The notes: generated by a model from the letters alone, not told the origin. A DNA stretch of 64,000 bases from Candidatus Acidiferrales bacterium (GCA_044447665.1 JBIOGB010000021.1:2403-66402); one strand, 5' to 3'; shown: positions 29,654 to 63,208, numbered from the stretch's first letter. A program made the numbers and translations.

Positions 29654-29707
29654 AAGCTGACAGAATCCCGCAAGCAAATCAGTGATGAGGATCACGGCAG
29701 TGCGTGA
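29654..29707 (-). promoter_or_regulatory. CRP/FNR-like box GTGA-tgagga-TCAC (29682-29695), half-site GTGA at 29704, -10-like TGtCAGCTT
   Basis: Same 22-bp tandem spacing and box-to--10 distance as six other island promoters. Confidence 0.6.
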
Positions 29708-29736
29708 TCGTAGGTTGGCAGGAATTGTGGCACAAC

Positions 29737-30045
29737 ATGTTCCCGAGCAGACTTTTCTCCGGCCTCCTTACCGATCTTCATGAATTTACGATGGCGGCGG
29801 GCTACGTCCAGAATCGATCAGACGCCCGCGCAACCTTTGAGCTCTTCGTACGTCATCCGCCCCGCAATCGCAACCATCTGGTCGCTGCAGGTCTCGAACA
29901 AGCTCTCGACTTCCTTGAAAACGTTCACTTCTCAACCCAAGAAATGTCCTACACGAGCAAGATCGTCCAGTTAGGGACCGAACACTCACTTTTCAACGTG
30001 GATGTGACGAGCTTCACAGCTTCGGATTCGGGTCCTGAAGTATAA
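29737..30045 (+). pseudogene. pncB: Nicotinate phosphoribosyltransferase N-terminal fragment
   Basis: 'LLTDLHEFTMAAGY...ATFELFVR...VAAGLEQALDFLENVHF' matches the NAPRTase N-terminus. Similarity stops after about 70 aa. Confidence 0.8.
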
Positions 30046-30109
30046 GGCTTGTGAGCCGGCGATGCCGCGACCCGTTTGTAATAAGCCATTTGCAAATTGA
30101 ACATTCACA

Positions 30110-32599
30110 ATGACCATGTTCCGCAAAGACCGATTCCCGCCCATGTCAACGCGGCAGAACCTCGTGGATTTTTTTTGCGGATTCTCGAGATCCCCAACCG
30201 AGTTCCTCCAATACGATACCGGGTATCGCAGTTGGAGATACACATATACACAAGTAGGCCTGGCCGCGCGTCATTTCGCGGTGCGACTGTCGGAAAACAA
30301 CATTCAGAAGGGTGACAAAGTCATCTTCTGGTCCGAAAACCGTCCCGAGTGGATCGCGGCGTTCTGGGGTTGCGTCCTTGCAGGCGTAATCATTGTACCC
30401 ATCGACCACCGCTCCTCGCTGCGTTTTTTGCGGCATGTTCACGAGATCGTGGATGCGCGATTGATATTGATCGGAGAGGAAGTTCAATTAACCGCCTGGA
30501 AGGGGCAGGCGCCCGCTTGGCGACTTTGCGACCTCGAATGGACCGCGACGGATTGTGAAGCGCCCGCGGTCCCAATCGGCAAGAATGACGTCGTGGAAAT
30601 CGTGTTTACCTCGGGCGCCACCGGCGAGCCCAAAGGCGTCCTGATCACGCATCGCAATATTCTCGCCAATATCGTGTCTCCAGAACGGATTGTTTCTGCT
30701 TACCGCAAATGGTTCCGGCCGGTGCTGCCGCTGCGTTTTCTGAGCCTGATCCCCTTGAGTCACATGTTTGGACAGGTAGTCACAATGTTTATTCTGCCGT
30801 TCATTCCTGGCACCGCCGTCTTCATGCACGGATACAGCCCACACGAAATCGTGCGCCAGATCCGCAGCCGGCGCGTGTCGGTAGTTGTCGCTGTGCCCAA
30901 GATCCTTGAAGTCCTGCGGAAGCACATCCTGTTACAATTTCCGGAAACTGCTGATCCGCCTCCGGCCACGGCACACTGGATCATCCGCTGGTGGCGATAC
31001 CGCCGTTTGCATTGGTGGTTAGGATGGAAGTTTTGGGCGTTTGTGGTCGGAGCAGCACCGCTCGCGAGAGACCTCGAGGAGTTCTGGTCTCGTCTGGGAT
31101 TCGCCGTCATTCAGGGTTACGGACTCACCGAGACGGCACCCGTCGTGGCCTTCAACAACCCTTTCGACATCCAGGAAGGAACAGTCGGCAAGCCTGCCGC
31201 CGGCGTCGAAGTGAAGATCGCGCCGGACGGTGAGATTCTCGTCCGCGGCGACAGCGTAACATCCGGGTACTACCACGCTCCCTCTGAGACCGCGTCAGCA
31301 TTCGAGGACGGATGGTTTCACACCGGTGACATCGGGAGATTTGACGAGGCAGGCAACCTGACGATACAGGGCCGCAAAAAGGAAATGATCGTCACACCGG
31401 AGGGCCTCAACGTATTCCCGGAGGATGTAGAGCATGCGCTGAATCGACTTCCCGGTGTGCGGGAATCCGCAGTAGTGGGCAGAGATCGCGTCCACGCGGT
31501 TCTGGTGCTGCACAACAGCGTAGACGCGGACGAAATTGTCCGCCGGGCCAACTTGCAACTCGAAGACCACCAGAGAATCCGAAGTTTCTCGATATGGCCT
31601 GGTGACCGCCTACCGCGTACGGAAGGCACACAAAAGCTAAAACATGGCGAGATCCAAGCTTGGGTGGAGACCGGGGCTTCTGTCGCGGCAACAGCCACGA
31701 GTGGAGGTGCCGTGGTCGATCTCCTCCGGAAATATGCGCTGGACCGGGCCATCACACCAGAGACAACGCTCGACCAGTTGGGGCTGAGCTCGCTCGATCG
31801 AGTCGAACTCATGCTGGATCTCGAGGAACAGTTCAATATCAGTGTTGACGAATCGCTATTGACCGGCACGCGCACAATTTCCGCTCTAGAGGAAATAAGC
31901 GCTCCACCCAGCGCCCCCGAATTCCCCACCTGGAACCGCTTTTGGCTCGCCAGAATCATTCGCCGCGTGGCTCTTTCCGCACTCTTTATGCCACTCGTTC
32001 GCATGATTGCGCACGCTCGAATTTCGGGCGTCCAGCATTTGGCTTCGCTGCAGGGACCCGTCATTTTTGCGCCGAACCACCAGAGTCACTTGGACACGCC
32101 TTTGATCTTGGCCTCCCTGCCCTCGCGCTACCGTTACCGCGTGGCTCCAGCAGTGTGGAAGGAATACTTCGATGCACACTTTTCTCCGAGCCGTCACACG
32201 CGCTACGAATGGCTTCGGGATAGTCTCACCTACGTGCTCGTGGCGTTCTTCTTCAATGCGTTTCCCATTCCACAGACGGAGGTTGGCGCGCGCCAGTCGC
32301 TGCGCTACCTGGGAGAGTTGGTAGGTGACAACTGGTCCGTATTATTCTTTCCGGAAGGTGAACGAACCGAGGCAGGAGAGATCAAGCACTTTCAACCAGG
32401 TATCGGGTTGATCGCCGGGCGGCTCGGAGTGCCTGTTGTTCCCATTCGATTGCGGGGGTTCGAAAAGATCCTCCCTCGACACGCGCGATGGCCGCGCCCT
32501 GCCAGAGTCGAAATATCCTTCGGACCGCCTCTATACCTGAAGGGCCAAGATTACACTGCTCTGGCAAAGCAGGTGGAAGAAGCGGTCCTCGCGCTGTAG
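30110..32599 (+). CDS. Long-chain acyl-CoA/AMP ligase - acyl carrier - PlsC acyltransferase fusion
   Basis: 'FTSGATGEPKG', 'QGYGLTE', 'FHTGD'. Carrier domain 'LGLSSLDRVEL'. PlsC 'NHQSHLD' and 'FPEGER'. Confidence 0.88.
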   Translation: MTMFRKDRFPPMSTRQNLVDFFCGFSRSPTEFLQYDTGYRSWRYTYTQVGLAARHFAVRLSENNIQKGDKVIFWSENRPEWIAAFWGCVLAGVIIVPIDHRSSLRFLRHVHEIVDARLILIGEEVQLTAWKGQAPAWRLCDLEWTATDCEAPAVPIGKNDVVEIVFTSGATGEPKGVLITHRNILANIVSPERIVSAYRKWFRPVLPLRFLSLIPLSHMFGQVVTMFILPFIPGTAVFMHGYSPHEIVRQIRSRRVSVVVAVPKILEVLRKHILLQFPETADPPPATAHWIIRWWRYRRLHWWLGWKFWAFVVGAAPLARDLEEFWSRLGFAVIQGYGLTETAPVVAFNNPFDIQEGTVGKPAAGVEVKIAPDGEILVRGDSVTSGYYHAPSETASAFEDGWFHTGDIGRFDEAGNLTIQGRKKEMIVTPEGLNVFPEDVEHALNRLPGVRESAVVGRDRVHAVLVLHNSVDADEIVRRANLQLEDHQRIRSFSIWPGDRLPRTEGTQKLKHGEIQAWVETGASVAATATSGGAVVDLLRKYALDRAITPETTLDQLGLSSLDRVELMLDLEEQFNISVDESLLTGTRTISALEEISAPPSAPEFPTWNRFWLARIIRRVALSALFMPLVRMIAHARISGVQHLASLQGPVIFAPNHQSHLDTPLILASLPSRYRYRVAPAVWKEYFDAHFSPSRHTRYEWLRDSLTYVLVAFFFNAFPIPQTEVGARQSLRYLGELVGDNWSVLFFPEGERTEAGEIKHFQPGIGLIAGRLGVPVVPIRLRGFEKILPRHARWPRPARVEISFGPPLYLKGQDYTALAKQVEEAVLAL

Positions 32600-32691
32600 C
32601 AAAGTTTCTGTCAAAGAAAGGGCCGCGCCACAGGCCTACACATTAGCAGGCAGCGACAAGGCATAGCTCTATTGACACGGCGTGGTGCATG

Positions 32692-34113
32692 TCAGCCCTT
32701 GACGCAAATCAAAGGTACGAGCCGCGCAACTCGCCGCGCCAAACCCACCTGCTCGGCCGCCTGAGCGACGGCATTCACATCCTTGTACGCGCCGGGCGCC
32801 TCTTCGGCAACACCGCGATAGCTACGAGTGCGTATTAGCACACCCTTTTCGGCCAATTCGTCAATCAGCTTGCGCCCCTGCCAGAGCTTCGCAGCCTGTG
32901 TGCGACTCATCGACCGGCCAGCGCCATGGCATGCTGACGAGAACGCAAGATGCTCACTTTGGCCCGTGCCGATTAAGATATAGGATTCCGTTCCCATCGT
33001 TCCGCCAATCAGCACCGGCTGCCCCGCTCCCCGCAGCGAAGCCGGCAATTCCGGATGGCCGGGGCCAAAGCTGCGCGTTGCACCTTTGCGATGAACGAAC
33101 AGTTCTCGACTTTCGCCGTCGATGACGTGCCGCTCAATCTTGCAGGTATTGTGGGAAACGTCGTAAAGCAGCGCGAGTTCGGCACCCGGAATGAGCTCGG
33201 CGAAAGCGCCGCGAACCAGATGCGTGATGATCTGCCGGTTCGCCAAAGCGCAATTCGTGGCGGCGCGCATCGCGCCAAGATAGTGTTGCCCCAGTTCCGA
33301 GCGGATCGGGGCACAGGCAAGTTCACGATCCGGAATGGGCCGATAACCCTCGATCACCATGGTTTTCAGATAGTCTGTTCCCACCTGGTGGCCGAGACCT
33401 CTCGATCCACAATGAATGCTTACGACAATGTCGTTTTGCTGCAGCCCTAGTACAGAGGCGGTCGGGGAATCGAAGATCTCAGCCACCCGCTGCACCTCCA
33501 GATAGTGGTTGCCCGATCCCAGCGTTCCCATCTCGTGAGCTTGGCGCTTCTTCGCGTGATGCGAAACGCACTCGGGCTTCGCGTCAGATGCACTTCCACC
33601 TTCTTCAATGCGCTCGAGATCTTTTGGGATTCCGTATCCGCGAGCCACAGCCCATTGCGCGCCGCCGCGCAGCATCTCATCCATCTCGTTTTCGCTGAGC
33701 AGGATCGCACCCGTACTGCCGACTCCGGCAGGGATTTTTCTGAACAGCGCATCCGCAAGGTCGGCTTTGCGCGGCTCTAGCCGGTCCGCTGCCAGCCCCG
33801 TTTGTAACGCGCGTACTCCACAGGAAATATCGAAGCCAACGCCTCCGGCAGAGATCACTCCACCCTCATCGGGATCGAAGGCGGCGACACCGCCAATTGG
33901 AAAACCGTAGCCCCAATGAGCATCCGGCATTGCGTAAGCCGCTCGTTGGATTCCGGGCAAAGTAGCGACATTGGTGAGCTGCTCGCGAACTTTTTCATCC
34001 ATGTCACGGATCAATTGCTCACCGGCATAGATGATTCCTGGGACGCGCATCTGCCCCGTCGGTTCGATGCACCACTCGAATTCAGAATGGCGCGTGAGCG
34101 ATTGCAGGTTCAT
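32692..34113 (-). CDS. rtcB: RNA-splicing/repair ligase RtcB (archaeal/eukaryotic-like type)
   Basis: 'MPDAHWGYGFPIGGV', 'GFDISCGVR', 'GTLGSGNHYLE', 'HCGSRG', 'SHN', 'HGAGR', 'EEAPGAYK'. Confidence 0.95.
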   Translation of the reverse strand: MNLQSLTRHSEFEWCIEPTGQMRVPGIIYAGEQLIRDMDEKVREQLTNVATLPGIQRAAYAMPDAHWGYGFPIGGVAAFDPDEGGVISAGGVGFDISCGVRALQTGLAADRLEPRKADLADALFRKIPAGVGSTGAILLSENEMDEMLRGGAQWAVARGYGIPKDLERIEEGGSASDAKPECVSHHAKKRQAHEMGTLGSGNHYLEVQRVAEIFDSPTASVLGLQQNDIVVSIHCGSRGLGHQVGTDYLKTMVIEGYRPIPDRELACAPIRSELGQHYLGAMRAATNCALANRQIITHLVRGAFAELIPGAELALLYDVSHNTCKIERHVIDGESRELFVHRKGATRSFGPGHPELPASLRGAGQPVLIGGTMGTESYILIGTGQSEHLAFSSACHGAGRSMSRTQAAKLWQGRKLIDELAEKGVLIRTRSYRGVAEEAPGAYKDVNAVAQAAEQVGLARRVARLVPLICVKG

Positions 34114-34131: not shown

Positions 34132-34548
34132 TCAGACGTCAACCACGCACTGCGCAACCCATTGACCATCTTGCTCACGATGCACTCGAAGCGCGGTGAC
34201 GGTGGCCCCCTTTGGCTCAACCCCAACCCGATGGCGTTCAGGATCAACTCTCTCGCCCACAAGAGTCCCGGTCAGAGAGCACCCAGACGTAACGACCCGA
34301 AACGTCCTGAACAACATCGTGCGCACCGCCATTTCATAGATGACCGCGTTGAGCCAACTGACAAAAAGCAGTTCGAGGTCGGGCGCATCGCAGCGGACTT
34401 CAACGGTTTCGCTTTCCCTAATCCTCGAAACGTCGGCCACAACCGCCGTGAGGGCAACCGCCGCTTGTTCAAATGCCTCTTCGACAGAGGCCCCGAATCC
34501 ACGCACGCCTATGTCCGAACCATGCGAAAAATGTTCCCAGGTGGCCAT
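34132..34548 (-). CDS. Archease
   Basis: 'WEHFSHGSDIGVRGFG', 'LFVSWLNAVIY', 'EPKGAT', C-terminal 'VVDV'. Directly upstream of rtcB. Confidence 0.92.
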   Translation of the reverse strand: MATWEHFSHGSDIGVRGFGASVEEAFEQAAVALTAVVADVSRIRESETVEVRCDAPDLELLFVSWLNAVIYEMAVRTMLFRTFRVVTSGCSLTGTLVGERVDPERHRVGVEPKGATVTALRVHREQDGQWVAQCVVDV

Positions 34549-34615
34549 CCTCTTCACGCATGCCCTGAGACTGGGCCGAGTTACGAACTTCGTTCGATTT
34601 CCCGTCGGACCCGAA

Positions 34616-34903
34616 TCACAACCTCGCGAGGAATTCTTTCCACGGCGTCGCCCCGAGTGTCTCCGTCGTCGAGTGCCCGTAAGCGCGGATAATCATTACC
34701 GCCTTCTCGATTTCTTTTGGATCATCCGTCTCCACGACATCAACGACATCGAACCGGCCGAGAGTCGCAAAACTATGTTTCCACTCCAACCCACGGCAAT
34801 CGGCCTTGATCTTGGTCGATACGGTTTCGGCCAACTTCTTAAAATCCTTGGGCTCCCGGAAAGCGTCGGGTGAAAATCGGCTTAGGATCACGTAAGTCGC
34901 CAT
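34616..34903 (-). CDS. GYD-domain protein
   Basis: AGGAGG RBS, 'MATYVILSRF...ATLGRFDVVDVVE...STTETL'. Confidence 0.82.
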   Translation of the reverse strand: MATYVILSRFSPDAFREPKDFKKLAETVSTKIKADCRGLEWKHSFATLGRFDVVDVVETDDPKEIEKAVMIIRAYGHSTTETLGATPWKEFLARL

Positions 34904-35330
34904 ACAATACCTCCTTCTAAGATTCATGCCGGTCGCTACCAAAGGTGTTTCGCAAACGATCAAATTCCGGTTTTACCAGCTGGCGTCTTTTTTCAAGACT
35001 TGCCTTGCTTCGCCAATTTCTTAGGTTTCGGGCTGCGCCACCGTTTCCGTTGCAAGCCAGAAGCCAAAAATTTAAGGGCAGCGGCAGGCTGCGAAGTGTT
35101 TCCGACCCTCTCGGGCCGGTGCGTCGAAACTCCCGGGCGCCTCGCTTACGCTTCGTGCCTGGCCGCTGCCTCAAACCGAAGGATGAAAGACTTGCGACTG
35201 GTCAAACCCTGGTTGTCGCTTCGCACCACATCAGAAGGCGACCAAGGGGAATTTCTGTGCTGCGGATTTATTCAATCCGTTGAGTCTCGGAAACTCTCTC
35301 CCATCGCATTCCCCATCCTCCGATGCTTCG

Positions 35331-35394
35331 TTTTTAGCTAACGTGTACTAAAAATGCTGTGACCTGGCTCACCCCTCGAAGTGATGAGCGTTAC
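35331..35394 (-). promoter_or_regulatory. Tandem CRP/FNR-like boxes TGTGA-cctggc-TCAC (35359-35372) and GTGA-tgagcg-TTAC (35381-35394), -10-like TAAAAA
   Basis: 22-bp spacing. Upstream of GYD-archease-rtcB, though about 430 nt from the first gene. Confidence 0.65.
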
Positions 35395-35516: not shown

Positions 35517-35966
35517 TCAAGTTGCTTTGACGGATGGGATTCGAACAATTTCAACGGAACAAAGCGCGTGGCGGAGAACAGCTTGCGATGTGCTCCCGAT
35601 CAGAAATCGGTCGATACCCTTGCGGCCATGGGAGCCCATAAAGATCAGATCAGCATCCCACTGCACCGCCCTGTCGAGGATGGCGGTTTTCGGTTCACCT
35701 TCTTCGATAACCGTATGCACCTGGAAACCTGCCGATCGAAGCTGTTGCGCGGTCCGCTCCCCCAATTCTTTCCCTTCTTTCAACCTCTCCCGCTGCGCGG
35801 CCTCAAGTGTTTCCACCTGTCCCACATATGCGTAAGGGATGATCACGGGCGGAACGACCACGTGGAAGACGCACACTTCCGCGCCTTCTGGCCTCATCTG
35901 CCGCACAACAGCCTGCGTGGCGGCTTCCGAGTATTTGGAGTCGTCAACCGCCAGCAAGATCTTCAT
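35517..35966 (-). CDS. Universal stress protein
   Basis: 'KILLAVDDSKYS', 'DLIFMGSHGRKGIDRFLIGSTSQAVLRHALCSV'. Confidence 0.93.
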   Translation of the reverse strand: MKILLAVDDSKYSEAATQAVVRQMRPEGAEVCVFHVVVPPVIIPYAYVGQVETLEAAQRERLKEGKELGERTAQQLRSAGFQVHTVIEEGEPKTAILDRAVQWDADLIFMGSHGRKGIDRFLIGSTSQAVLRHALCSVEIVRIPSVKAT

Positions 35967-36021
35967 GGGCAAGATCCTCTCCCCTTCGAGCAAATTGCAC
36001 GAGTCCAAAGGAGCCTAGGGA

Positions 36022-37021: not shown

Positions 37022-38446
37022 CTAATCCGCCGCCGTCGCTCCCTGGACCTGAGCCTTCTCCGCGGGAGTGAAATGGCGCGAGAACCACTCGGCGGCAACC
37101 CTTGCCGCTTCTTCGAGTGTTCCCGGCTCTTCGAACAGATGCGTGGCACCGGGAATGATCACCAGTTTCTTGTCAGGACATTTGAGCTTCGCAAGGGCTT
37201 CCCGATTCATGGTGATCACTGGCTCGTCGTCTCCTCCGACGATCAGCAGCGTGGGTGCGCGGACAATGGTAAGTGCGCCTCCCGCAAGATCCGGTCTGCC
37301 GCCCCGCGACACGACAGTGCAAACAATTTTGGGAAGTTCGGCAGCCGCCACGAGCGCCGCGCCCGCCCCGGTGCTGGCTCCGAAATAACCTATTTTGAGC
37401 TCTCGTGTTCCCGGACTGCCTTTGATCCACTGCGTCGCTGCAACCAGACGCCTTGCAAGGAAGGGGATGTCGAAACGCAGTTCGCCGGTATATTGATCAA
37501 TGGACTCCTCTTTCCGAGTCAAAAGATCAAACAAAAAGGTTGCGATTCCCTTGGATTGGAGTACCTGTGCAACATAGCGATTGCGCGGGCTATGGCGGCT
37601 GCTTCCGCTGCCATGCGCAAAAAGGACGATCCCATCCGCGTCCTTCGGAAGAGCCAAAGAGCCTTCCAGTGTTACACCTTCGAGGTCGAGCGTGACCTCT
37701 CGCCTGTCGCCGTCCCATTCTGACTTTCTCATGGTCGAGCTCCTTTCAGCGTCACTCGGGTCTTCCTTGTCCACCTTTTGAAGAGCCGGCTGCGCAGCCT
37801 GCTGCAGCAGTTCAGTTACTTTCTCATCCGCCACTTGTGAGAAATCCTCGTAGAACTGCCCGATCGCATAGAAGTACTTCGGCGTGTTGACGCAAATAAG
37901 CTCATCGACCTCAGTTCTCAGGCGATTGCAAGTCGATATCGGGGCTACAGGGACGGCGACTATCAGCCGAGCTGGCTTCATCTGTCGTAACGCCTGGATA
38001 GCAGCGCGCATGCTGGACCCTGTGGCAATTCCGTCATCCACCAGCACAACAACCTGCCCTTCCACATGAAGTGGAGGCCAGGCACCTCGATAGATGCTTT
38101 CACGTCTCGTAAGCTCCTTTTTTGCTTTTTCGGTGATCTGTTCGATCTGCGTCTCGGAAATCCCTGCTCCCTCGACGATCTCCCGATCGAGCACACGCAC
38201 CCCGCCGCTCGCCACTGCTCCGAATGCGAGCTCTTCTTGCCCAGGAACGCCGAGTTTGCGTGAAACAAACGTGTCTAGCGGGGCATGCAACGCTTTTGCG
38301 ACTTGAAAGGCGACCGGAACACCCCCGCGTGGAATTCCGAGCACAATCACATCCTTCCGGCCTGCGTAGGTACGCAGTTGCTCTGCCACCCTGCGGCCAG
38401 CATCTTCGCGATCTTTGAAAATCAGTTGCTCATCACCAAAATCCAT
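37022..38446 (-). CDS. Phosphoribosyltransferase - alpha/beta (dienelactone) hydrolase fusion
   Basis: 'FKDREDAGR', 'GIPRGGVPVA', PRPP loop 'LVDDGIATGSS'. C-terminal 'FAHGSGSSRHSPRN', 'GYFGASTG', 'HLFEEPG'. Confidence 0.88.
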   Translation of the reverse strand: MDFGDEQLIFKDREDAGRRVAEQLRTYAGRKDVIVLGIPRGGVPVAFQVAKALHAPLDTFVSRKLGVPGQEELAFGAVASGGVRVLDREIVEGAGISETQIEQITEKAKKELTRRESIYRGAWPPLHVEGQVVVLVDDGIATGSSMRAAIQALRQMKPARLIVAVPVAPISTCNRLRTEVDELICVNTPKYFYAIGQFYEDFSQVADEKVTELLQQAAQPALQKVDKEDPSDAERSSTMRKSEWDGDRREVTLDLEGVTLEGSLALPKDADGIVLFAHGSGSSRHSPRNRYVAQVLQSKGIATFLFDLLTRKEESIDQYTGELRFDIPFLARRLVAATQWIKGSPGTRELKIGYFGASTGAGAALVAAAELPKIVCTVVSRGGRPDLAGGALTIVRAPTLLIVGGDDEPVITMNREALAKLKCPDKKLVIIPGATHLFEEPGTLEEAARVAAEWFSRHFTPAEKAQVQGATAAD

Positions 38447-38517
38447 GTATATCCTCGTTTCGAGTGTCAGGCCACTTAGATCCTTTCCTACCACTCTGAT
38501 CTGTGCGTCAACCAAAT

Positions 38518-38609
38518 CTTTTAGTCCATCTCACTAACATGCGCAGTGAAGCCCATCACAGTCCTGTGTGACGCACGCTACACAACTTGGACCGGGGATA
38601 CCCCAGAAT
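38518..38609. promoter_or_regulatory. Tandem CRP/FNR-like boxes GTGA-agccca-TCACA (38546-38559) and TGTGA-cgcacg-CTACA (38568-38581) in a divergent promoter
   Basis: 22-bp spacing. -10-like TAAAAG (minus, 38518-38523) and CAGAAT (plus, 38604-38609), each 22 nt from the nearer box. Confidence 0.7.
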
Positions 38610-38624: not shown

Positions 38625-39080
38625 ATGGCGAAACGAACGTCCAACGCCCGCCATCTAGGGATCGATCTGAGGTCAAAGAGAGAAGAAGAACTCTTCAAGT
38701 GGTTTCTTGCATGCCTGCTTTTCGGAAAACCAATTCAGACCGAAATTGCTGAGCAAGCCTACCGGGAACTCGTGGCTGCACGCCTGACGAGTCCCGCAGC
38801 GATTCTCCAGGCTGGCTGGGACAAGCTCGTGCTTCTCCTAGACCAGGCCCACTACGTCAGATACGATTTCTCCACGGCAACCAAAATCCTTGAAGTATGC
38901 AAGGAACTGAAACGCGGCTACGGTACGGTCAAAAACCTTGTCGCACAGGCTAAAACAACGTCCGAGCTTTCGCAGAAGCTGCAGGAATTCAAACACATCG
39001 GTCCAGTAACGACCCGAATTTTCTTGCGTGATGTGCAGCCAGTCTGGTATCGCAGCGCCACAACCCGCAGAAAACGATAA
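38625..39080 (+). CDS. HhH-GPD-like DNA-binding protein of unknown function
   Basis: 'FKWFLACLLFGKPI', 'YVRYDFSTA', helix-hairpin-helix 'LQEFKHIGPVTTRIFLR'. Confidence 0.72.
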   Translation: MAKRTSNARHLGIDLRSKREEELFKWFLACLLFGKPIQTEIAEQAYRELVAARLTSPAAILQAGWDKLVLLLDQAHYVRYDFSTATKILEVCKELKRGYGTVKNLVAQAKTTSELSQKLQEFKHIGPVTTRIFLRDVQPVWYRSATTRRKR

Positions 39081-39134: not shown

Positions 39135-40232
39135 TTACCCAGCCGCCCGCATCGGTTTTTCATGTTCGAGGCTGGAGCAGTCGATCTTGAGGAACCGCAG
39201 CGATTGATTCCAGTTCGCCGAAGTGCCGAAGGCCTCAGAAAGCGCCCTCATTTTGTCCGCGATACTTAGCGCGTACACTCCCTCGGCGCGAAAGGACCGG
39301 CAGCCACGAATCAGAGTTGGATACAGGCGCAAACTCTGGGCGATCCTTTCCTGCACATCTATCACATAGATAAAGGACTGATCGTTGCGCTCGGTCTTGT
39401 CAACTGCATAATCGTCTACAAAATCGCCCGCACCATACAGAATTGTGCGGCCTTGGTAAAATTCGATCCCCCGGAAAACGTGGCTCGAGTGACCGAAAAC
39501 AACATCAGCTCCCGCATCGACGAGCGCATGAGCCAACGCCACGTGGTCCTTGGGAGGCGTATACCCCCAGTTGGATCCCCAGTGAGCAGATACAATTAAG
39601 AAATCCACAGCTTCTCGCTGCTCTCGAATGATGTCCAATAGCCTCGACGCCCGCGGATCGTTAATATTCGTAGGCACAAAAAAAACGCCGGGCCAGTCCT
39701 TGGTGGCTTCCCAATCGGACTCATTGTCGGTGAACGCAAGTAATCCAATCTTCCGTCCTGACACCTCGGCTGCGGCGACCCTCGAGGCTTGCGCCAGATT
39801 CATCCCAGCGCCGCTATGCACAATGCGGGCTCGGTCAAGGATTTCCAGCATTTCGAACATCGCATCGTATCCATAGTCAAGAACGTGATTATTGGCTAGG
39901 GAGACGGCGTTGATCTCAGCGATTTTCAGCACCTCGATGTTCTTTGCTGCTGACTGAAAGTGAAATGCTTTTGGATAGGCAGACCACGGCTCGCCCCGAT
40001 CCGAGATGACGCATTCAAGGTTGCAGAGCCGCCAGTCGGCGCTATGCAGGATAGGCAGCGTATCTCCCCACGGATACTCTGGCGGCGCATTTTCCAAAAC
40101 CTCGTTCACCAGGCGTCCGAGCATGCAATCGCCCAGCAGCAGCAGCTCTAGGGGCTTCCTCTTCCCGGCTTCAGAAGCTAATCGCCGTGCTTGTTCTCGG
40201 GGGGACACGTGTTCGCGACAATCGTTACTCAT
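39135..40232 (-). CDS. CapA-family metallophosphatase (poly-gamma-glutamate synthesis protein-like)
   Basis: 'GDCMLGR', 'NLEC', 'SLANNHVLDYG', 'SAHWG', 'GHSSHVF'. Confidence 0.88.
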   Translation of the reverse strand: MSNDCREHVSPREQARRLASEAGKRKPLELLLLGDCMLGRLVNEVLENAPPEYPWGDTLPILHSADWRLCNLECVISDRGEPWSAYPKAFHFQSAAKNIEVLKIAEINAVSLANNHVLDYGYDAMFEMLEILDRARIVHSGAGMNLAQASRVAAAEVSGRKIGLLAFTDNESDWEATKDWPGVFFVPTNINDPRASRLLDIIREQREAVDFLIVSAHWGSNWGYTPPKDHVALAHALVDAGADVVFGHSSHVFRGIEFYQGRTILYGAGDFVDDYAVDKTERNDQSFIYVIDVQERIAQSLRLYPTLIRGCRSFRAEGVYALSIADKMRALSEAFGTSANWNQSLRFLKIDCSSLEHEKPMRAAG

Positions 40233-40346: not shown

Positions 40347-41273
40347 TCATCGGCCTCCGGCGATTTTTCGTTTTGCCGTTTTGTCTGTTAAGGACAGTTC
40401 TCCCGCAATCAGCGGAGCCACTGAGATGATAGAAATGTTTGTAGTATCGATGTCCGCGCGAAGAGGAACTGTGTCAGTGCAGAATATGCGTTTTACCCCG
40501 AGAGACCATATTTTTGTCCATTGTGATCCCGTGAAGAGGCCGTGAGTGACTAGGATGTAGATCTCTTTCACGCCCACTTCTCTCAGCTTTTCGCAGGCGG
40601 AGACCAGGGTTCCCCCCGTATCGAGCATGTCGTCGATGATCACCACTCTAGCCCCCACTCTGCCCACGGGGCCTTGATGGATGATTCCTTGCTCGGTCCT
40701 CTTTTTTTCAAAGTATGGGGTCTCACCGATCGGCATGCCCGCTGCATTCTTCACTTCTTCGCAACGGCTGATTGCTCCGTTGTCGGGAGCAACGATGGTT
40801 GCATCAGTTAGACTTTGGTTTCTTAAGACCTCGGCGAAAATACGCGCCGTTGAGAGGGAACGCACAGGCAAGCAAAGCAATTCCTTGTCACGCTCGCTGT
40901 GCACGTCTACCGTAATCACCTGATCTAAGCCGGAGCCCTTCAGAAGGGAACCAATCCAGGCCGTTCCCAAGCTCTCTCCAGGCTTCTCCTTGTCCTGCCG
41001 GCTGTAGGCAAAATATGGAAGGACCGCCGTTACCTTGCCGGCGCCTCCCTTCTTGAGCGTGTGGGCCAACAACATCGGAGAAAGCGTCTGTTCGTCCGGA
41101 GGAGCGATCGAACCTAAGACCAAGCAGTGTTCGCCTGATACGCTGCCTTGCACTTTGGCGCGCAATTCCTGGTTGTCATATCGGCTGATTGCGAATTGGC
41201 CCACTTGTAGCAAAAGAGTGCTGCGTAATTCCCGCGCGATATGTTCGTAGTTGGAAAAGCTAAACAGAATCAT
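40347..41273 (-). CDS. prs: Ribose-phosphate pyrophosphokinase (divergent copy)
   Basis: 'PYFAYSRQDK', 'VDVHS', 'VAPDNGA', 'IIDDMLDTGGT', 'THGLF', 'TDTVP'. Confidence 0.88.
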   Translation of the reverse strand: MILFSFSNYEHIARELRSTLLLQVGQFAISRYDNQELRAKVQGSVSGEHCLVLGSIAPPDEQTLSPMLLAHTLKKGGAGKVTAVLPYFAYSRQDKEKPGESLGTAWIGSLLKGSGLDQVITVDVHSERDKELLCLPVRSLSTARIFAEVLRNQSLTDATIVAPDNGAISRCEEVKNAAGMPIGETPYFEKKRTEQGIIHQGPVGRVGARVVIIDDMLDTGGTLVSACEKLREVGVKEIYILVTHGLFTGSQWTKIWSLGVKRIFCTDTVPLRADIDTTNISIISVAPLIAGELSLTDKTAKRKIAGGR

Positions 41274-41512
41274 AACGATTCCCATGCGGGCTTTATCGGA
41301 GGCTCTCCTCTTTTCGTCGCCTTCCCGCAGGCATTGGCCGGGGCCGCTTCTTCTCCTCACCCGAGCCAGTAACCCGTCTTGAACTTGATTTCTTGCAACT
41401 CCGGAATCAGTTCAAGGGTGTAATCGAAAGGGCGGCTCGTACGCTTTACCAGTCGCGCCATCGGGAACCGCAATGACTGTGCGTGTTGGTCATGCGGCGT
41501 CCTGGATTACGC

Positions 41513-41563: not shown

Positions 41564-42079
41564 TTAAGCGGCTTTTGGATGAATACGGATTGTTTGGGCT
41601 TTCGCAACCTTCGGCAGGTTGAACTCCAGGATGCCGTTCTTTAACGTCGCGTTCACCTTATCCGTCTCGACATCGGCAGGCAGGTCCACCATCCGCAAGA
41701 TTTGGTCGCAGCACCTCTCCGCATAGACTGTCTTGCCTTTTTTTTCTTCTTTCTTGGCTTCCCGCTTGCCGGTGATCGTTAGCCGGCGCGGCTCAAGGCT
41801 GATCTCGAGTTCTTTTTCGCTAAAACCGGGTACCTCGGCCTTCACGGCGAAAGAATCATCGAACTCCTCGATGCTCACGTGCACCGGATGAAATAGCTCC
41901 CTTTCCGCCTGGAACCAGTTCTCGAGGTCGCGGCCAAATGAGCGGCCGTTACCTTCGAAGATTTCATAGGCTCTGCGCGAAAGAGCGTTGAATGTGTCTT
42001 GGATCTGGTCAAATACAGAACCGTACTTGATCGGCTTCGCCGGCTCTTCAGCACGTTTCACTGCTGCAGTTTCCGCCAT
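41564..42079 (-). CDS. Hsp20/alpha-crystallin small heat shock protein with DUF2934-like N-terminus
   Basis: 'RRAYEIFEGNGRSFGRDLENWFQAERE' then 'AEVPGF...LPADVETDKVNATLKNGILEFNLPK'. Confidence 0.9.
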   Translation of the reverse strand: MAETAAVKRAEEPAKPIKYGSVFDQIQDTFNALSRRAYEIFEGNGRSFGRDLENWFQAERELFHPVHVSIEEFDDSFAVKAEVPGFSEKELEISLEPRRLTITGKREAKKEEKKGKTVYAERCCDQILRMVDLPADVETDKVNATLKNGILEFNLPKVAKAQTIRIHPKAA

Positions 42080-42168: not shown

Positions 42169-42232
42169 AGCTTGCCAAAATGAACGAACGGAAGCAGTGA
42201 TGCAGGTCACCAGGTTCTGTGAGGGCCGTCTC
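42169..42232 (-). promoter_or_regulatory. Tandem CRP/FNR-like boxes GTGA-tgcagg-TCAC (42197-42210) and TGTGA-gggccg-TCTC (42219-42232), -10-like TGgCAAGCT
   Basis: 22-bp spacing. Upstream of hsp20. Confidence 0.7.
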
Positions 42233-42386
42233 TCATGGCAAACCAGTCTTTTTTCTCATACAGGTGAGTGAGCCGTGCTGGAAGCGATGCCCAGACACCG
42301 AAGACAGGCATGTGTCGATATGCAACTCGCCCGCGAGTTCGACGATTCCTCACCGGGGCTTTCACGATCGCTAGTCTTGTATCTGC

Positions 42387-43037
42387 TCAATCCCCTGAGG
42401 CCGCCGCTTGTTTAGCCGGAGGCGGCATTCTCCCCTTGCTGAGAATTCGAACTGTGCTCGCCTGTGACCCTTTTTCCCCCGGCTCTTCCACAAAACTCAC
42501 TCTCGTTCCTACCTTCAAACGCGAAAATGCCCGGTTGAGAACACTGTTCTTGTGGAAATAAATCCCACGCCCGTCATCCGATGTCAGGAACCCGTAGCCT
42601 TCACCTTGGAGAATCTTGCTCACGCGCGCTACCTGGAGCGGTGCATGGCTCTTTATGTCGCCGCGCTGACGGCGAGCGTAATCCTGCAAACGCCGGCCGG
42701 CGGCCTTGAACGCGTCATTAATTGCCAGCTGGAGATTCTTGTGCGGAGTTTTCAGTTCCAGGTGTTTCTCGATCTCGGTCTCCCCCAACTGCCGGGCACG
42801 ATGACTTATGCTGGGCTCGCGCTTGACCACGATCTCTTCTCCCGGCACAGTCAGATCAATGCGAATGTGATACGGGCTCCCCCTCCTGTGATGACGGTGT
42901 GGCATTTCTATCGCTACTCGACACCCCATCACGCGGTTGTAGAAGCTATCGAGCTTGTCTGCTTCAGCGCGGACCCATTCCTCGATGGTTTCTGACGGTG
43001 TCACATTCCGGAAGGTAATTTGCAGCGGAGATTGCAT
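42387..43037 (-). CDS. HPF/RaiA ribosome hibernation factor fused to a cold-shock domain
   Basis: 'LQITFRN...CRVAIE...IRIDLTVPG...AINDAF' plus CSD 'GYGFLTSDDGRGIYFHKNSV'. AAGGAGG RBS. Confidence 0.9.
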   Translation of the reverse strand: MQSPLQITFRNVTPSETIEEWVRAEADKLDSFYNRVMGCRVAIEMPHRHHRRGSPYHIRIDLTVPGEEIVVKREPSISHRARQLGETEIEKHLELKTPHKNLQLAINDAFKAAGRRLQDYARRQRGDIKSHAPLQVARVSKILQGEGYGFLTSDDGRGIYFHKNSVLNRAFSRLKVGTRVSFVEEPGEKGSQASTVRILSKGRMPPPAKQAAASGD

Positions 43038-43225: not shown

Positions 43226-45028
43226 CTAGACCGTGCAAAACGCATAGCCACAAGAGAGGCAAGAAACGCAGGCCGAATCCTCCACCATCGTGCCACCGCA
43301 TTCCGGACAGGCCTGCGCGCCAACCGGGACATCTTCCCTCAATTCTCCTGCTCGTAAGACCTGCTCGCCCTTGCAACCATCACGAAAGACTGTGATCCCT
43401 TTGCATCCCAGCTCATGCGCCAAGAGAAAGACACTCTCGATATCCCGCCGCGTGGCCGTGCGAGGGAGATTCGCAGTTTTGCTCACGGCATTCTCCACAT
43501 GTCGCTGAAAGACTGCCTGCATCCGAACGTGCCACTCCGGCGCAATGTCATGCGCGGTCACAAAAACACGCCGGATGGATTCCGGGATTTCTTTCAGATT
43601 CTGGATACTACCGGTTCGTGAAATCGATTGGCGAACGCTTTCGTTCAAGTAAGGTGCGGCCATAGCCTCGAACAAAGGATGAAGATGCGACTGGCTTGGA
43701 CGACCAAGCACGCTGCGGATGTAGCAGAGCGCAAAGATTGGTTCGATACCGCTCGAGCATTCGGCAATGAGACTAATCGTTCCCGTCGGCGCTATCGTCG
43801 TGACCGTGGCGTTACGCCTCTTGATGCCCTGAGCCGCGAAAATACTTCGCGGGTAGTTTGGGAACACTCCGCGCGATTCAGCGAGCCGGCACGACTCTTC
43901 TTTGGCTTCCACAGAGAGAAACTTCATCAGTTCGTCCGCCGTGGCCAACGCCTCCGCTGAATCGTACGGCAACCCCAGCAGGAAAAGCAGATCGGCGAAC
44001 CCCATGATGCCGAGACCGATTTTCCGGTTCGCCAGCGTCTGCTCTTCGATCTCGGACAGCAGATAGTGGTTGGCATCAATCACGTCATCCAAAAATCGTA
44101 CTGCGAGTCGCGTAATGGACCGGAGACGCTCGTAGTCAATCCGTGACTCGCGTACAAAATGCGCGACATTGATTGACCCAAGATTGCACGATTCATATGG
44201 GAACAATGGCTGCTCACCGCAAGGGTTGGTAGCTTCAATCTCACCCAGAGCAGCCACCGGATTCTGCCTGTTGATGGCGTCCAGAAACACCAGACCGGGA
44301 TCACCCGTCTTCCAGGCACAATCGACAATCGCATTGAAGACTTGTCGGGAATTCAGACACCTGGCTTCCTGACCATTGCGGGGATTAATCAGCGGATAGT
44401 CGGCACTCCGTCGGACGCAATCCATGAATCTGTCCGTGACGGCCACGGAAATATTGAATGTGGGCAAAGTGTCGGCTTCGCTCTTCGCTGCGATGAATTC
44501 CAATAGATCGGGGTGATCGAAACGGAGAACACCCATGTTTGCACCCCTTCGCGCGCCACCCAAACGTGTGACCTGGCAGGCATAGTCGTACAGTTTCATG
44601 AAGGAGACCGGACCACTGGACTCCCCCCGGGATGAGCCAATCGGGTCACCGCGAGGCCGAAGATGGGAAAATGAAAACCCGGTTCCGCCGCCTGTTTTCT
44701 GGATCAGGGCCATCGCCCGGAGGCCACCAAAAATGGAATCCATGGAATCTTCGATCGGCACGACAAAGCAGCCGGAGAGCTGCGCCTCCGGAAGACCGGC
44801 GTTCATAAGAGTCGGCGAGTTGGGCAGAAAATCAAGGTCCCTCATCATCCTGGAAAATGCGTCAGCAGATTCTCGAACCTGGGTTGACGGAATGTTTCTG
44901 CGTTCTGCGGTCGCAACATGCCACGCCACCCGTGAAAACATCTCTCCCCGCGTTTCAAGAAGCTTCCCGGAAGCATCCGCCAGCAATATCCGCTTCTCCA
45001 ACACTTCGCGAGCGATGTTGGAATTCAC
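43226..45028 (-). CDS. nrdJ: Adenosylcobalamin-dependent (class II) ribonucleotide reductase
   Basis: 'PNSPTLMNAG', 'QLSGCF', 'GGGTG', 'TNPCGEQPL', 'TIAPTGTIS', C-terminal CxxC...CxxC ribbon. Confidence 0.9.
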   Translation of the reverse strand: MNSNIAREVLEKRILLADASGKLLETRGEMFSRVAWHVATAERRNIPSTQVRESADAFSRMMRDLDFLPNSPTLMNAGLPEAQLSGCFVVPIEDSMDSIFGGLRAMALIQKTGGGTGFSFSHLRPRGDPIGSSRGESSGPVSFMKLYDYACQVTRLGGARRGANMGVLRFDHPDLLEFIAAKSEADTLPTFNISVAVTDRFMDCVRRSADYPLINPRNGQEARCLNSRQVFNAIVDCAWKTGDPGLVFLDAINRQNPVAALGEIEATNPCGEQPLFPYESCNLGSINVAHFVRESRIDYERLRSITRLAVRFLDDVIDANHYLLSEIEEQTLANRKIGLGIMGFADLLFLLGLPYDSAEALATADELMKFLSVEAKEESCRLAESRGVFPNYPRSIFAAQGIKRRNATVTTIAPTGTISLIAECSSGIEPIFALCYIRSVLGRPSQSHLHPLFEAMAAPYLNESVRQSISRTGSIQNLKEIPESIRRVFVTAHDIAPEWHVRMQAVFQRHVENAVSKTANLPRTATRRDIESVFLLAHELGCKGITVFRDGCKGEQVLRAGELREDVPVGAQACPECGGTMVEDSACVSCLSCGYAFCTV

Positions 45029-45173: not shown

Positions 45174-45725
45174 TCATCGTTGAGCGACCAGTTCGAATAC
45201 TTGCGGCTGTGCAGCGGCGGCCCTCAGTTCCTGCTCCGACCTCGCTTGCGTTTTCCTCAAGAGAACTTCCAGAGACGGCCCGTTAAACCTCGTTGTGACT
45301 CGGGAAGGATCGACCTCGACAGCGAGGTCGAGGACACGGAAGACCATTTTTCCATCGGGACGTGCCCTGGTCTGCTTCCGAGCAGCATCCACCTTGTCCA
45401 CCTTCGGCTTCCCGCAAATTGTGATCTGGCGGGGCCCAACCCAAATCTCAATCGTACCTTCCTCGAAGATGGCAACGTCAGCGCCCACCCAGAGGCTATC
45501 GTCAACCGTCATTCGTCCACAGCAGAGCGGGCCTACTAGTTCGCATTCCGCTTGACGCCAGTCCTCCAGTTCATGGCCAGATGCAGAACCACGACGTTCA
45601 AAGATTGCGTAAGCGCGGCAAGCCACGGCTTCATGCACCCTGCGTGTTTGCTCGTCGACGTCCACCATCGCCAACTTCACTTTTTCGTCTGCCCTTGAGT
45701 GCTTCCCTGCTCTTCCTGCCCTCAT
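45174..45725 (-). CDS. DUF2934-domain protein with degenerate Hsp20-like C-terminus
   Basis: 'RAYAIFERRGSASGHELEDWRQAECEL' and 'LDLAVEVDPSRVTTRFNGPSLEVLLRK'. GGAGG RBS. Confidence 0.75.
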   Translation of the reverse strand: MRAGRAGKHSRADEKVKLAMVDVDEQTRRVHEAVACRAYAIFERRGSASGHELEDWRQAECELVGPLCCGRMTVDDSLWVGADVAIFEEGTIEIWVGPRQITICGKPKVDKVDAARKQTRARPDGKMVFRVLDLAVEVDPSRVTTRFNGPSLEVLLRKTQARSEQELRAAAAQPQVFELVAQR

Positions 45726-45764: not shown

Positions 45765-45828
45765 AGTATTGGCCATTTGCCTTGGCATTCCTGTGACGCG
45801 TGTCACAGCCTCATGTGAGCAAATACAC
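45765..45828 (-). promoter_or_regulatory. Tandem CRP/FNR-like boxes CTGTGA-cgcgtg-TCACAG (core 45793-45806) and TGTGA-gcaaat-ACAC (45815-45828), -10-like AATACT
   Basis: Near-perfect palindrome, 22-bp spacing. Confidence 0.75.
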
Positions 45829-45941: not shown

Positions 45942-46005
45942 GTGATTTCTCATACCGTCTTGTGTGATGGAGGTCACGATATCGGGAACCACACAGGAAT
46001 AAATT
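45942..46005 (+). promoter_or_regulatory. Tandem CRP/FNR-like boxes TGTGA-tttctc-ATAC (45942-45955) and TGTGA-tggagg-TCAC (45964-45977), -10 TAAATT (46000-46005)
   Basis: 22-bp spacing. Upstream of osmC-acsA-pdh. Confidence 0.75.
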
Positions 46006-46069
46006 GTTGATAGTAATTCTGGAGCGCCCAAACAAACGGGCTTGCTTGCGCAGAGAAGAGGAGGGACGA

Positions 46070-46552
46070 ATGGAAGCTCACTATATATACCGCGTTAACG
46101 CGTCTTCGACGACAGTTCGGAGCGGCACCGTGGCCGCCGATAAAATAGAACGCCCGATTGCATTCAGCGCGCCACCTGAATTCCAAGGTGAGCCCGGCAA
46201 TTGGACGCCCGAACACTTTCTGATAGCCTCCGTGGCCGGGTGTTTCGTAAGCACCTTCTCCGGAATGGCCCATTTCTCCAAGTTTGAATTCCTCTCGCTT
46301 GAGGTGGGCGTCGAAGGAATCATCGGAAAGGATCAGGGAGGCTGGCGCTTCACGCAGGTCAACGTGCGTCCTCGATTGAAAATCGCGCACGAAAAGGATC
46401 GTGAACGCGCCAATCGCTTACTGGAAAAGGCCGAAAAGACTTGTCTCGTTGTGCGTTCCCTGACGTCCCAAGTTGCGCTCGAACCCGAAATTCTGGTTGA
46501 AGAGAAAATTCTGGAACGCGAAAAGATGGGGAATGCCATTCCCATAACGTAG
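46070..46552 (+). CDS. OsmC-family protein
   Basis: 'FSAPPEFQG...WTPEHFLIASVAGCF...AEKTCLV', two conserved Cys. Confidence 0.88.
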   Translation: MEAHYIYRVNASSTTVRSGTVAADKIERPIAFSAPPEFQGEPGNWTPEHFLIASVAGCFVSTFSGMAHFSKFEFLSLEVGVEGIIGKDQGGWRFTQVNVRPRLKIAHEKDRERANRLLEKAEKTCLVVRSLTSQVALEPEILVEEKILEREKMGNAIPIT

Positions 46553-61928: not shown

Positions 61929-61937
61929 GAAACCCTC

Positions 61938-63062
61938 CTATGACTGAGCAGCGTTGTCCGGCTTTGCCTTCTGTTTTTCGGGAGGCGTCGTTTCGTGCCG
62001 TGGACGGTCCCGTACTGCACTGGCGATTCCGTGAAGAATCGTTGCGCCAGCAACCGCACCCGTTAGGACCAAGCCAATCTCACCCGCGGGAACATCCACG
62101 CCAAAGCCAGGCACCTGCGGCAACCGCTCATAAAACGGCGACTTGGTATCCCAGAAACGGTGGGAGGCACATGCCAGGCAGCCGTGGCCTGCTTTCACCG
62201 GCCAGCTCGTCTGATCGTTCCAACGAACGTTGGGGCAGTTGAAGGTGGCTTGCGGCCCTTTGCAGCCCATCTTATAGAGGCACCAGCCCTTTCGGTGCCC
62301 TTCGTCTCCCCACTCCTCGACGTAGCGTCCGGCGTCGTAGTGAGCGCGCCGCTCGCACTGGTCATGAATGATGCGGCCGTAGGCGAATAGCGGCCGGCGG
62401 TACTGATCCGTGGCAGGCAGTTCGCCGAAGGTCAAGTAGTGCACCAGAACCGCAACGGTATTCGCGGGGTTTTGCGGACATCCAGGCATGTTGATAAGGT
62501 TGATCCCAGGCACGGCTTCCTCGAGCCCTACCGCGCCGGTGGGATTCGGATGAGCGGCTACCAAACCGCCGTCCCAAGCGCAAGCGCCCACGGCAATGGA
62601 TGCGGCCGCATTTCCACAGACTTCGCGCGCAAGGTCGATTGCCGTTCGCCCAGCCACCGTACAGTAGACCCCACCGTCCGCCAGAGGTATGGCCCCTTCC
62701 ACGACCGCTAAGTACTTTCCTTTCTCTTCCTTGACAACACGCTGGAGCGCTGCCTCGGCGTGCTTTCCGGCTCCTGCCATGATGAGTTCGTGGTACTCCC
62801 AGGAAAGTAAATCCAGGACGACTTCCAGCACAGTTGGGTGACTGGCCCGTAAGATGGATTCGGAATTTCCGGCGCAGTCCTGGAATTGTAGCCAGACCAG
62901 TACAGGCTTCTTGGCCTTGCCAAGAGCTTCAACGACTTGTGCCAGGTAGCGGTCGGGCAGAGCCAAGGTCGCCACCATTGCACTGCAGAACTCAATAAAG
63001 CGCCTGCGAGAAACTCCATGAGCTTTCAATGCGCCGGAGAGAGACTGTCCTTCAGGAAACAT
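61938..63062 (-). CDS. Group 1 [NiFe]-hydrogenase small subunit (Tat signal, C-terminal TM anchor)
   Basis: 'SRRRFIEFC', 'QDCAGNSES', 'PGCP', 'HDQCERR', 'CLYKMGCKGP', 'WPVKAGHGCLAC'. Confidence 0.95.
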   Translation of the reverse strand: MFPEGQSLSGALKAHGVSRRRFIEFCSAMVATLALPDRYLAQVVEALGKAKKPVLVWLQFQDCAGNSESILRASHPTVLEVVLDLLSWEYHELIMAGAGKHAEAALQRVVKEEKGKYLAVVEGAIPLADGGVYCTVAGRTAIDLAREVCGNAAASIAVGACAWDGGLVAAHPNPTGAVGLEEAVPGINLINMPGCPQNPANTVAVLVHYLTFGELPATDQYRRPLFAYGRIIHDQCERRAHYDAGRYVEEWGDEGHRKGWCLYKMGCKGPQATFNCPNVRWNDQTSWPVKAGHGCLACASHRFWDTKSPFYERLPQVPGFGVDVPAGEIGLVLTGAVAGATILHGIASAVRDRPRHETTPPEKQKAKPDNAAQS

Positions 63063-63144
63063 GCGTCACCTCAGTTGGGGGGAGACCCGGCGGGATTCTT
63101 GCTTGGGTTCAAAGGTTACCTCGTCCGCCCTTCATGGCTGATTT

Positions 63145-63208
63145 GGTGTAGCAAGGTCCTTAACCAGCTTCAGTGACCGGCATCACCTATCAAAGTGACC
63201 TTGCTCAC
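63145..63208 (-). promoter_or_regulatory. Two perfect GTGA-N6-TCAC boxes (63173-63186, 63195-63208), extended -10-like TGcTACACC
   Basis: 22-bp spacing. Directly upstream of the hydrogenase operon. Confidence 0.78.

Follow-up and report, generated by a model that had tools for sequence, protein, structure and literature searches.

The window analysed here, a stretch of 64,000 nt from a Candidatus Acidiferrales bacterium (C21:2403-66402), carries an island of about 35 kb with stress and hydrogenase genes (Table 1). From 28.8 kb to the right end of the window, every inferred transcription unit has before it a box of the form GTGA-N6-TCAC or a tandem pair of such boxes, which makes a 36-bp composite unit (box, 8 bp, box). 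Acidobacteriota rank with the most abundant bacteria of soil, and next to nothing is known of the way in which they regulate genes. What are these units, how far do they extend beyond the island and which protein would read them? The paired-site design recurs genome-wide and in related genomes. A full-text search of the literature found no published description of this regulon or of the GTGA-N6-TCAC box.

Paired boxes in the window, the genome and related genomes

Ten perfect boxes occur in the window against 0.74 expected from dinucleotide shuffles, and none of 100 shuffles reached ten. The original prediction listed seven tandem pairs, all intergenic and all with their boxes exactly 22 bp apart. 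When the sequences were printed and the mismatches counted, six of them (starting at 35359, 38546, 42197, 45793, 45942 and 63173) proved to be true pairs, intergenic and with exact spacing in every case. At window offsets of 14-69 bp other than 22 there is not a single pair with up to two mismatches. The remaining one, 29682/29704, is a single box: at 29704 GTGA alone matches, four of the eight positions are wrong and the supposed partner is a chance half-site. The sequence around 29682 is itself a copy, as positions 29652-29702 match the core promoter of an Hsp20 gene on contig C52 with 98% identity over 51 bp. This copy covers the box and the -10 only and stops where the distal box would begin. 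The first 28 kb had been described as devoid of pairs, which is correct; the sole perfect box there, at 4766, is single and intragenic (4766-4779, inside the coding region 4727-6244 on the minus strand), consistent with a chance expectation of about 0.7 per window. One perfect single box, at 30004, was absent from the earlier list of pairs. It has TATAAG 23 nt downstream, before the gene at 30110, and is a probable single-site promoter of the same regulon.

Is the pairing a property of the island, to which the regulon was first assigned? The assembly (3.86 Mb, 86 contigs, 58% GC) contains 34 pairs with up to two mismatches at offset 22; 55 other offsets gave 1.8 such pairs on average and 8 at most. 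These pairs are spread over about 20 contigs (C7, C14, C15, C52, C57 and others), and the regulon is therefore genome-wide and not an island property. The same preference is seen when counting starts from the 124 perfect boxes of the assembly: partners with up to two mismatches number 41 at exactly 22 bp and 0-5 at any other distance from 1 to 60. Nearly all pairs (31/34) lie outside the rough gene calls, and the other three fall within the first 55 nt of over-extended open reading frames (ORFs). The GTG of the box is easily mistaken for a start codon; mechanical ORF calling picks it, or a TTG just beyond, at 29704, 35359 and 38515 and also at C18:47017. For the gene called at 37022-38515 the true start must be further in, because the TTG at 38515 is upstream of the predicted transcript start (about 38511) and the homologues align only from residues 14-33.

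How are the mismatches distributed? At least one perfect box is kept in 32 of the 34 pairs, and where a pair has two mismatches both are found in one box in eight cases and split in two. This gathering of mismatches suggests a primary site that recruits to a weaker neighbour. The perfect box had been proposed to be the one proximal to the promoter, which applies within the window and fails genome-wide, where, with the -10 as guide, about 10 pairs speak for the rule and 8-9 against it. Isolated perfect boxes, among which the one at 30004 would be an exception, look like chance: 60 of 82 are intragenic, and the intergenic ones have no -10 register. Therefore, the pair is the predominant functional unit.

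The design is also found in relatives. Loci around homologues of the phosphoribosyltransferase (PRTase)-hydrolase gene place the organism in the Acidobacteriota, class Terriglobia, close to ‘Candidatus Acidiferrales’. In 36 such loci of other Acidobacteriota (427 kb), perfect boxes number 99 (14.8 per 64 kb); 39 partners lie at 22 bp, and distances of 21 and 23 bp have none. For the corresponding gene family in other phyla (41 loci, mostly Actinomycetota) 489 kb contain 10 boxes, which is chance level, and none is paired. The strict 36-bp pattern of two perfect boxes is present in 15 of 401 sampled Acidobacteriota genomes, mostly of the same class (Terriglobia), and its reversed control gave 0 matches in those 401 genomes. 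Of the first 80 loci listed in a scan across all GTDB species, about 62 belong to Acidobacteriota. Could the pairs have arisen by chance, or by the copying of a promoter cassette that is repeated or mobile? The near-identical copy at 29652-29702 is what such an explanation has in its favour. That copy apart, neither the N6 core nor the 8-bp spacer nor the flanking sequence is shared from pair to pair; the only features to emerge from the profile of the pairs are the half-sites, a weaker GC-W in the outer flank and the -10 register. The empty reversed control and the low shuffle expectation also argue against a cassette or chance, an explanation that we regard as extremely improbable.

Promoter register and the likely effect of double occupancy

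TGTGA-N6-TCACA is the CRP-type consensus, and class II activation involves a site centred at -41.5. Do the pairs have this geometry, as originally proposed? Every offset beyond the box was scored with a sigma-70 -10 matrix, a good hexamer being one with a position weight matrix score above 3. Good hexamers are present in this genome at offset 22 in 18 of 72 flanks, at 23 in seven and at 24 in eight, with about one at other offsets, so that 33 of the 72 flanks have one 22-24 nt beyond the box core. In the pairs of the relatives offset 22 carries a good hexamer in 20 of 68 flanks, an independent replication. With the hexamer at -12 to -7 (start 7 nt after it), the box centres would fall at about -41.5 and -63.5, in agreement with the class II proposal. 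The eight -10 hexamers quoted for the window were found in place 22 nt beyond the box, with A in the second position of all eight, T in the last position of five and TGn before three. As a general feature the extended -10 (TGn) was rejected: genome-wide it occurs in 6 of 72 flanks at the expected offset against a background of about five. The box occupies the -35 position, its last base lying at -35, and, judged by eye, no TTGACA-like hexamer is seen at the -35 position in the flanks or the profile; therefore, the promoters look activator-dependent. The centre-to-centre distance of 22 bp corresponds to about 2.1 helical turns, which places the two sites in tandem on the same helical face, as in class III promoters.

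Comparable promoters are known from Escherichia coli, the class II and class III CRP/FNR promoters. They share with the units described here a TGA-N6-TCA-type palindrome near -41.5 that replaces the -35 element and a second dimer upstream. In the E. coli tandem promoters studied, the second site is at least 30 bp further upstream (e.g. at -74.5 or -93.5), so that space remains for the alpha C-terminal domain of RNA polymerase. In the acidobacterial promoters, by contrast, the spacing of the abutting sites is invariably 22 bp, and pairs predominate.

What would be the consequence of filling both sites? Here two mycobacterial precedents pull in opposite directions. At the whiB1 promoter of Mycobacterium tuberculosis, CRP (Rv3676; PDB 3h3u, 3mzh, 3d0s) binds two sites that abut with a spacing of 21 bp and share one DNA face, and the filling of one favours that of the other (PMC2844151). 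The sites are centred at -58.5 and -37.5, and double occupancy represses, as it leaves no room for the alpha C-terminal domain of the polymerase (PMC2844151). It might then be that the tandem unit is a repressing or biphasic operator, at which one dimer activates and two block that domain, all the more as M. tuberculosis CRP is the closest solved relative of the acidobacterial regulator described below. The whiB1 case differs in that it concerns a single promoter and not a regulon-wide layout, and in that the protein binds cyclic AMP (cAMP) (PMC2844151). Several findings speak against repression. The proximal site lies in class II register, 22-24 nt from the -10, at dozens of promoters in several genomes; the promoters look activator-dependent; and isolated boxes have no promoter register, so the pair looks like the productive form. 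The second precedent is DevR (DosR) of the same species, for which tandem sites are ‘an architectural hallmark’; a class I example, tgs1-Rv3131, has them at -42.5/-63.5 in the same helical phase, and promoters with this layout are activated and need both sites (PMC3177182). One of the DevR sites is conserved and the other often degenerate, binding is cooperative and one pair serves divergent promoters; binding to the second site is lost with insertions of +5 or +15 bp (PMC3177182). An operator that represses or is biphasic thus appears quite unlikely, and the pairs would be a case in nature where adjoining CRP/FNR dimers seem to activate, in a layout that is repressive for M. tuberculosis CRP at whiB1.

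Candidate regulators and a proposed mechanism

The regulator had been predicted to lie outside the window, and indeed no CRP/FNR gene is found there. The genome encodes four paralogues (P0001-P0004), on contigs C14, C15, C68 and C7. They pass PF13545 at 72-75 bits against a cut-off of 27, and close homologues carry PF00027 together with PF13545. Compared with the PDB, P0001 matches CRP, FNR, NtcA, DNR and CooA with E values from 1e-22 to 1e-8, M. tuberculosis CRP coming first (E about 1e-22). The recognition helix of the paralogues reads R-E-T-V-T/A-R, the same as in the E. coli CRP type (R-E-x-x-x-R), a protein of the same superfamily. In a family alignment of 131 diverse members, drawn from 514 representatives that a search found at E <=1e-30, this RETVxR helix is nearly invariant (R201 in 128, E202 in 121 and R206 in 124 of the members). 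Four cysteines, C13, C16, C25 and C64, are present in 84-97 of the 131 members and a fifth, C112, in 58, giving the pattern C-x2-C-x8-C plus C64. Homologues with 85-97% identity are very numerous in soil metagenomes, where they bear generic names only.

Could it be an ordinary catabolite regulon under cAMP-CRP? In favour, both the TGTGA-N6-TCACA-like core and the RE...R helix are as in CRP. However, the Arg-Ser/Thr that binds the phosphate of cAMP (R82/S83 in E. coli, R89/T90 in M. tuberculosis) is replaced throughout the family, by Tyr-Glu in P0001 and by Tyr (84 of 131 members) or His (30) followed by Glu in the alignment. The regulator scores 56 bits with the NCBIfam model for CRP, whose cut-off is 266, and 48 bits with that for Fnr (cut-off 228); it reaches none of the equivalogs CRP, FNR, FixK, NtcA and FtrB. 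Its putative targets are stress, dormancy and hydrogenase genes and not genes of carbon catabolism. A catabolite regulon is on these grounds very unlikely. The earlier proposal of a CRP/FNR-family regulator stands; a cAMP receptor is made unlikely by the replaced Arg/Thr pocket. The protein looks instead like a cysteine-ligated redox or oxygen sensor.

FNR (E. coli, Aliivibrio fischeri; PDB 5e44 family) is the obvious comparison. It has an N-terminal cysteine triad with a further cysteine, the same domain order and targets of a similar low-oxygen type. The details differ: FNR has C-x2-C-x5-C (C20, C23, C29 and C122 in E. coli), whereas the acidobacterial family has C-x2-C-x8-C with the fourth cysteine elsewhere. 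Its E-x-x-S-R helix reads TTGAT, in contrast with the CRP-type RETVTR helix and the GTGA box. The acidobacterial regulator therefore differs from both E. coli proteins, having neither the cAMP pocket of CRP nor the E-x-x-S-R helix of FNR.

Regulator genes and pairs occur together. Tandem pairs lie directly upstream of the regulator genes on C14, C68 and C7, with predicted leaders of about 100, 99 and 20 nt, which suggests that three of the four are positively autoregulated. The related genome G075 has 12 pairs, 11 of them on a contig with two orthologues of 60-62% identity, and one of these pairs is just upstream of a regulator gene. Matches to P0001 number two in G075, two in G014 and one in G229, and all three genomes have pairs. 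Two genomes of genus g8 have no pairs, and G087, the one of them searched with P0001, has only a 36% homologue. Just upstream of the pair that precedes P0004 lies an ORF (L084:2438-2941; C7:95437-95940, minus strand) whose end preserves part of a CRP/FNR helix-turn-helix (GTSREIVTRLFAGFKK); no sensor domain could be recognised in frame, and the ORF probably represents a decayed paralogue. In a relative, a 182-aa frame at G384:C34:4646-5113 matches only regulator residues 11-166 (sensor and dimerisation helix, no DNA-binding domain) and adjoins a full-length orthologue and a tandem pair.

Do both boxes of a pair have to be read by the same protein? The four paralogues share the recognition helix, P0004 has no N-terminal cysteine triad and the boxes of one pair often differ in quality. 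The two boxes might thus be read by different paralogues, e.g. by a cysteine-bearing sensor and P0004, with the promoter integrating two signals. This seems unlikely to us. No consistent sequence difference between proximal and distal boxes was found, contact between like dimers explains the invariant 22 bp more simply, and the relatives with fewer paralogues (two matches to P0001 in G075 and in G014, one in G229) still have pairs.

We consider it likely that the 36-bp unit is a composite operator for two dimers of a cysteine-rich CRP/FNR activator, which would switch on a low-oxygen or redox persistence programme. Two regulator dimers, with P0001-P0004 as candidates, would bind next to each other on the same DNA face. 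The dimer at about -41.5 would replace the -35 element and recruit RNA polymerase as in class II promoters. The second, at about -63.5 and at an invariant distance of 22 bp, would probably stabilise the first by direct dimer-dimer contact, and this contact would let one box degenerate. In divergent regions one unit could serve both directions, because each box is ‘proximal’ for one promoter. The CRP-type helix would fit GTGA, and the conserved cysteines (often including C112) are most likely the ligands of a redox-sensitive centre, either iron-sulfur or of another kind. A fall in oxygen, or a related redox or nitric oxide signal, would then switch on the regulon, and the programme would comprise universal stress proteins (USPs), Hsp20s, a B12-dependent ribonucleotide reductase, PRTases, OsmC, an uptake hydrogenase, acetate activation and RtcB repair. 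We infer cooperative binding from the invariant spacing and from the mismatches gathered in one box; binding, activation and the oxygen or redox signal are likewise deduced from sequence.

Several points weigh against this proposal. Activation from -41.5/-63.5 is not self-evident, because abutting CRP dimers 21 bp apart repress at whiB1 (PMC2844151). The -10 register is statistical, and the window hexamers CAGCTT, CAAGCT and TACACC are poor. In the aligned sequences the cysteines are absent from about one-third of the family members and from P0004, their C-x2-C-x8-C spacing is unlike that of FNR, and P0001 and P0003 have no cysteine matching FNR Cys122; for these reasons an iron-sulfur cluster is no more than a candidate. 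Furthermore, any of the four paralogues could be the binder, because they share one helix.

A stronger version of the proposal is possible, if on balance somewhat doubtful: the regulator would be an obligate dimer-of-dimers protein on its 36-bp operator, acting as the oxygen or redox master switch of a DosR-like programme across Terriglobia and convergent with the mycobacterial -42/-63.5 design. To our knowledge, an obligate dimer-of-dimers mode has not been described as a regulon-wide rule for the CRP/FNR superfamily. The DosR regulon overlaps in gene content and has the same promoter layout; it includes USPs, a nitroreductase, nrdZ and an Rv0571c-type PRTase-hydrolase, and hspX is a further member named in the work on DevR promoters (PMC3177182). 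In contrast to the one-component CRP/FNR protein proposed here, DevR is a NarL-type response regulator, served by the kinases DevS and DosT, activated by phosphorylation and bound to an unrelated motif of 18-20 bp. As the regulators are unrelated, the likeness is convergent and not homologous. The parallel suggests a general solution for switch-like induction of dormancy genes. A further system of comparable content is the lxa locus of Burkholderia cenocepacia, about 50 genes induced at low oxygen, with USPs, alpha-crystallin, ribonucleotide metabolism and CRP/FNR-family regulators, in which a 4-bp inverted repeat with 6 bp between its halves occurs at 17 intergenic points (PMC3721108). In both cases the regulator is known only as a CRP/FNR candidate. 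The lxa locus belongs to a different phylum, and the text of the paper reports no tandem 22-bp arrangement (PMC3721108).

The proposal has the advantage of being testable: it specifies a 36-bp operator, four candidate regulators for which a sensing site is predicted, and about 35 target promoters. The genes behind these promoters serve to scavenge hydrogen, to supply nucleotides without oxygen and to repair RNA, or encode chaperones and USPs, and they offer an entry into the question of how these ‘aerobes’ survive periods of anoxia in soil and peat.

Regulon content, a possible leader RNA and composition of the island

Which genes lie behind the pairs? Those of the window are given in Table 1.

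Table 1. Single boxes and tandem pairs of the window with their candidate -10 hexamers and the genes near them (window positions; strand in brackets; mismatches as left + right box)
Feature	Position	Mismatches	-10 hexamer	Genes behind it	Other side or remark
Single perfect box	29682..29695		CAGCTT 29654-29659 (-), candidate, TGT before it	Faces nitroreductase gene 28839-29399 (-)
Single perfect box	30004..30017		TATAAG 30041-30046 (+)	Acyl-CoA synthetase/acyl carrier protein (ACP)/acyltransferase fusion gene 30110-32599 (+)
Tandem pair	35359..35394	0+1	TAAAAA 35331-35336 (-)	Leader, GYD 34616-34963, archease 34132-34557, RtcB 32692-34113, all (-)	Predicted start near 35324; right side abuts 3' end of USP gene
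Tandem pair, divergent region	38546..38581	0+2	TAAAAG 38518-38523 (-); CAGAAT 38604-38609 (+)	(-): PRTase-dienelactone hydrolase 37022-38515, YbaK-like gene, USP 35517-36008	(+): gene 38625-39080, function not recognised
Tandem pair	42197..42232	0+1	CAAGCT 42169-42174 (-), weak, TGG before it	(-): Hsp20-DUF2934 41564-42079, phosphoribosyl pyrophosphate synthetase 40347-41360, PGA_cap protein 39135-40232	Right side faces ORFs 42268-42995 (+) without recognised function
Tandem pair	45793..45828	0+1	AATACT 45765-45770 (-)	(-): DUF2934 protein 45174-45725, adenosylcobalamin-dependent ribonucleotide reductase NrdJ/Z 43226-45028	NrdJ/Z passes TIGR02504
Tandem pair	45942..45977	2+0	TAAATT 46000-46005 (+)	(+): OsmC 46004-46552, acetate-CoA ligase, E1 alpha, E1 beta, E2, ACP (to 51843)
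Tandem pair	63173..63208	0+0	TACACC 63145-63150 (-), TGC before it	(-): NiFe hydrogenase small subunit 61938-63062, large subunit, cytochrome b, maturation protease, hypCDEABF (down to 53021)	Right side faces isocitrate-lyase-like gene at 63415 (+)
Familyless genes behind pairs	38625-39080, 42268-42995, 45174-45725; loci L093, L098, L101, L104, L106, L111

Outside the window, genes for four tandem-domain USPs lie behind pairs, as do those for two more Hsp20s, a second OsmC and a PRTase. Others precede a formate-dehydrogenase-like molybdoenzyme, glycogen phosphorylase, a PAS/sigma-54 activator, an OmpR-type regulator, a P-type ATPase, a PfkB kinase, a BadF/BcrA-type activase, an M48 peptidase and a cyclopropane-fatty-acid-type synthase, along with many proteins without known family. 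As annotated, the set has the content of a hypoxia or persistence stimulon. Ten proteins directly behind pairs gave no NCBIfam family and, with Pfam, nothing except DUF2934 in the product of 45174-45725; their genes are candidate new members of the low-oxygen programme. In another member of the phylum, Acidobacterium capsulatum, several usp genes rise at 0.1 uM O2, the top two 7- and 56-fold, in a study that names no CRP/FNR regulator (PMC11636273).

The operon of RtcB has a long leader. About 420 nt without an ORF separate the predicted start from the GYD-archease-RtcB genes, the leader being placed at 34964-35324. Its core of about 107 nt (35077-35183, minus strand) has an invariant outer stem, GAGGCAGCGGCC...GGCCGCTGCCTC, is 71-91% conserved in relatives and shows compensatory changes at seven of 23 predicted base pairs. 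A further tandem pair precedes an Hsp20 gene whose leader contains a 76% copy of this core (C26:9646-9725). Rfam gave no match in the window at gathering thresholds, nor in the leader of the RtcB operon at E up to 1, and a loose pattern of the stem was uninformative, with 432 matches in the whole genome. The core may be an undescribed leader RNA of the regulon.

The island also differs in composition from the rest of the window. Its GC content (28000-64000) is 0.54-0.57 compared with 0.57-0.61 in most of the first 28 kb, and it scores much lower per residue against the codon usage of the genome than positions 1-28000. These values would be consistent with foreign origin or with low expression during growth. 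Lastly, the intergenic region 29652-30045 is a mosaic of the promoter copy described above and a fragment of a nicotinate phosphoribosyltransferase gene. The fragment, adjoining the 51-bp copy, is a 113-aa ORF that encodes the N-terminal domain only, and its DNA is 78% identical to the 5' part of the gene at C7:81108-81324, the closest full-length match.

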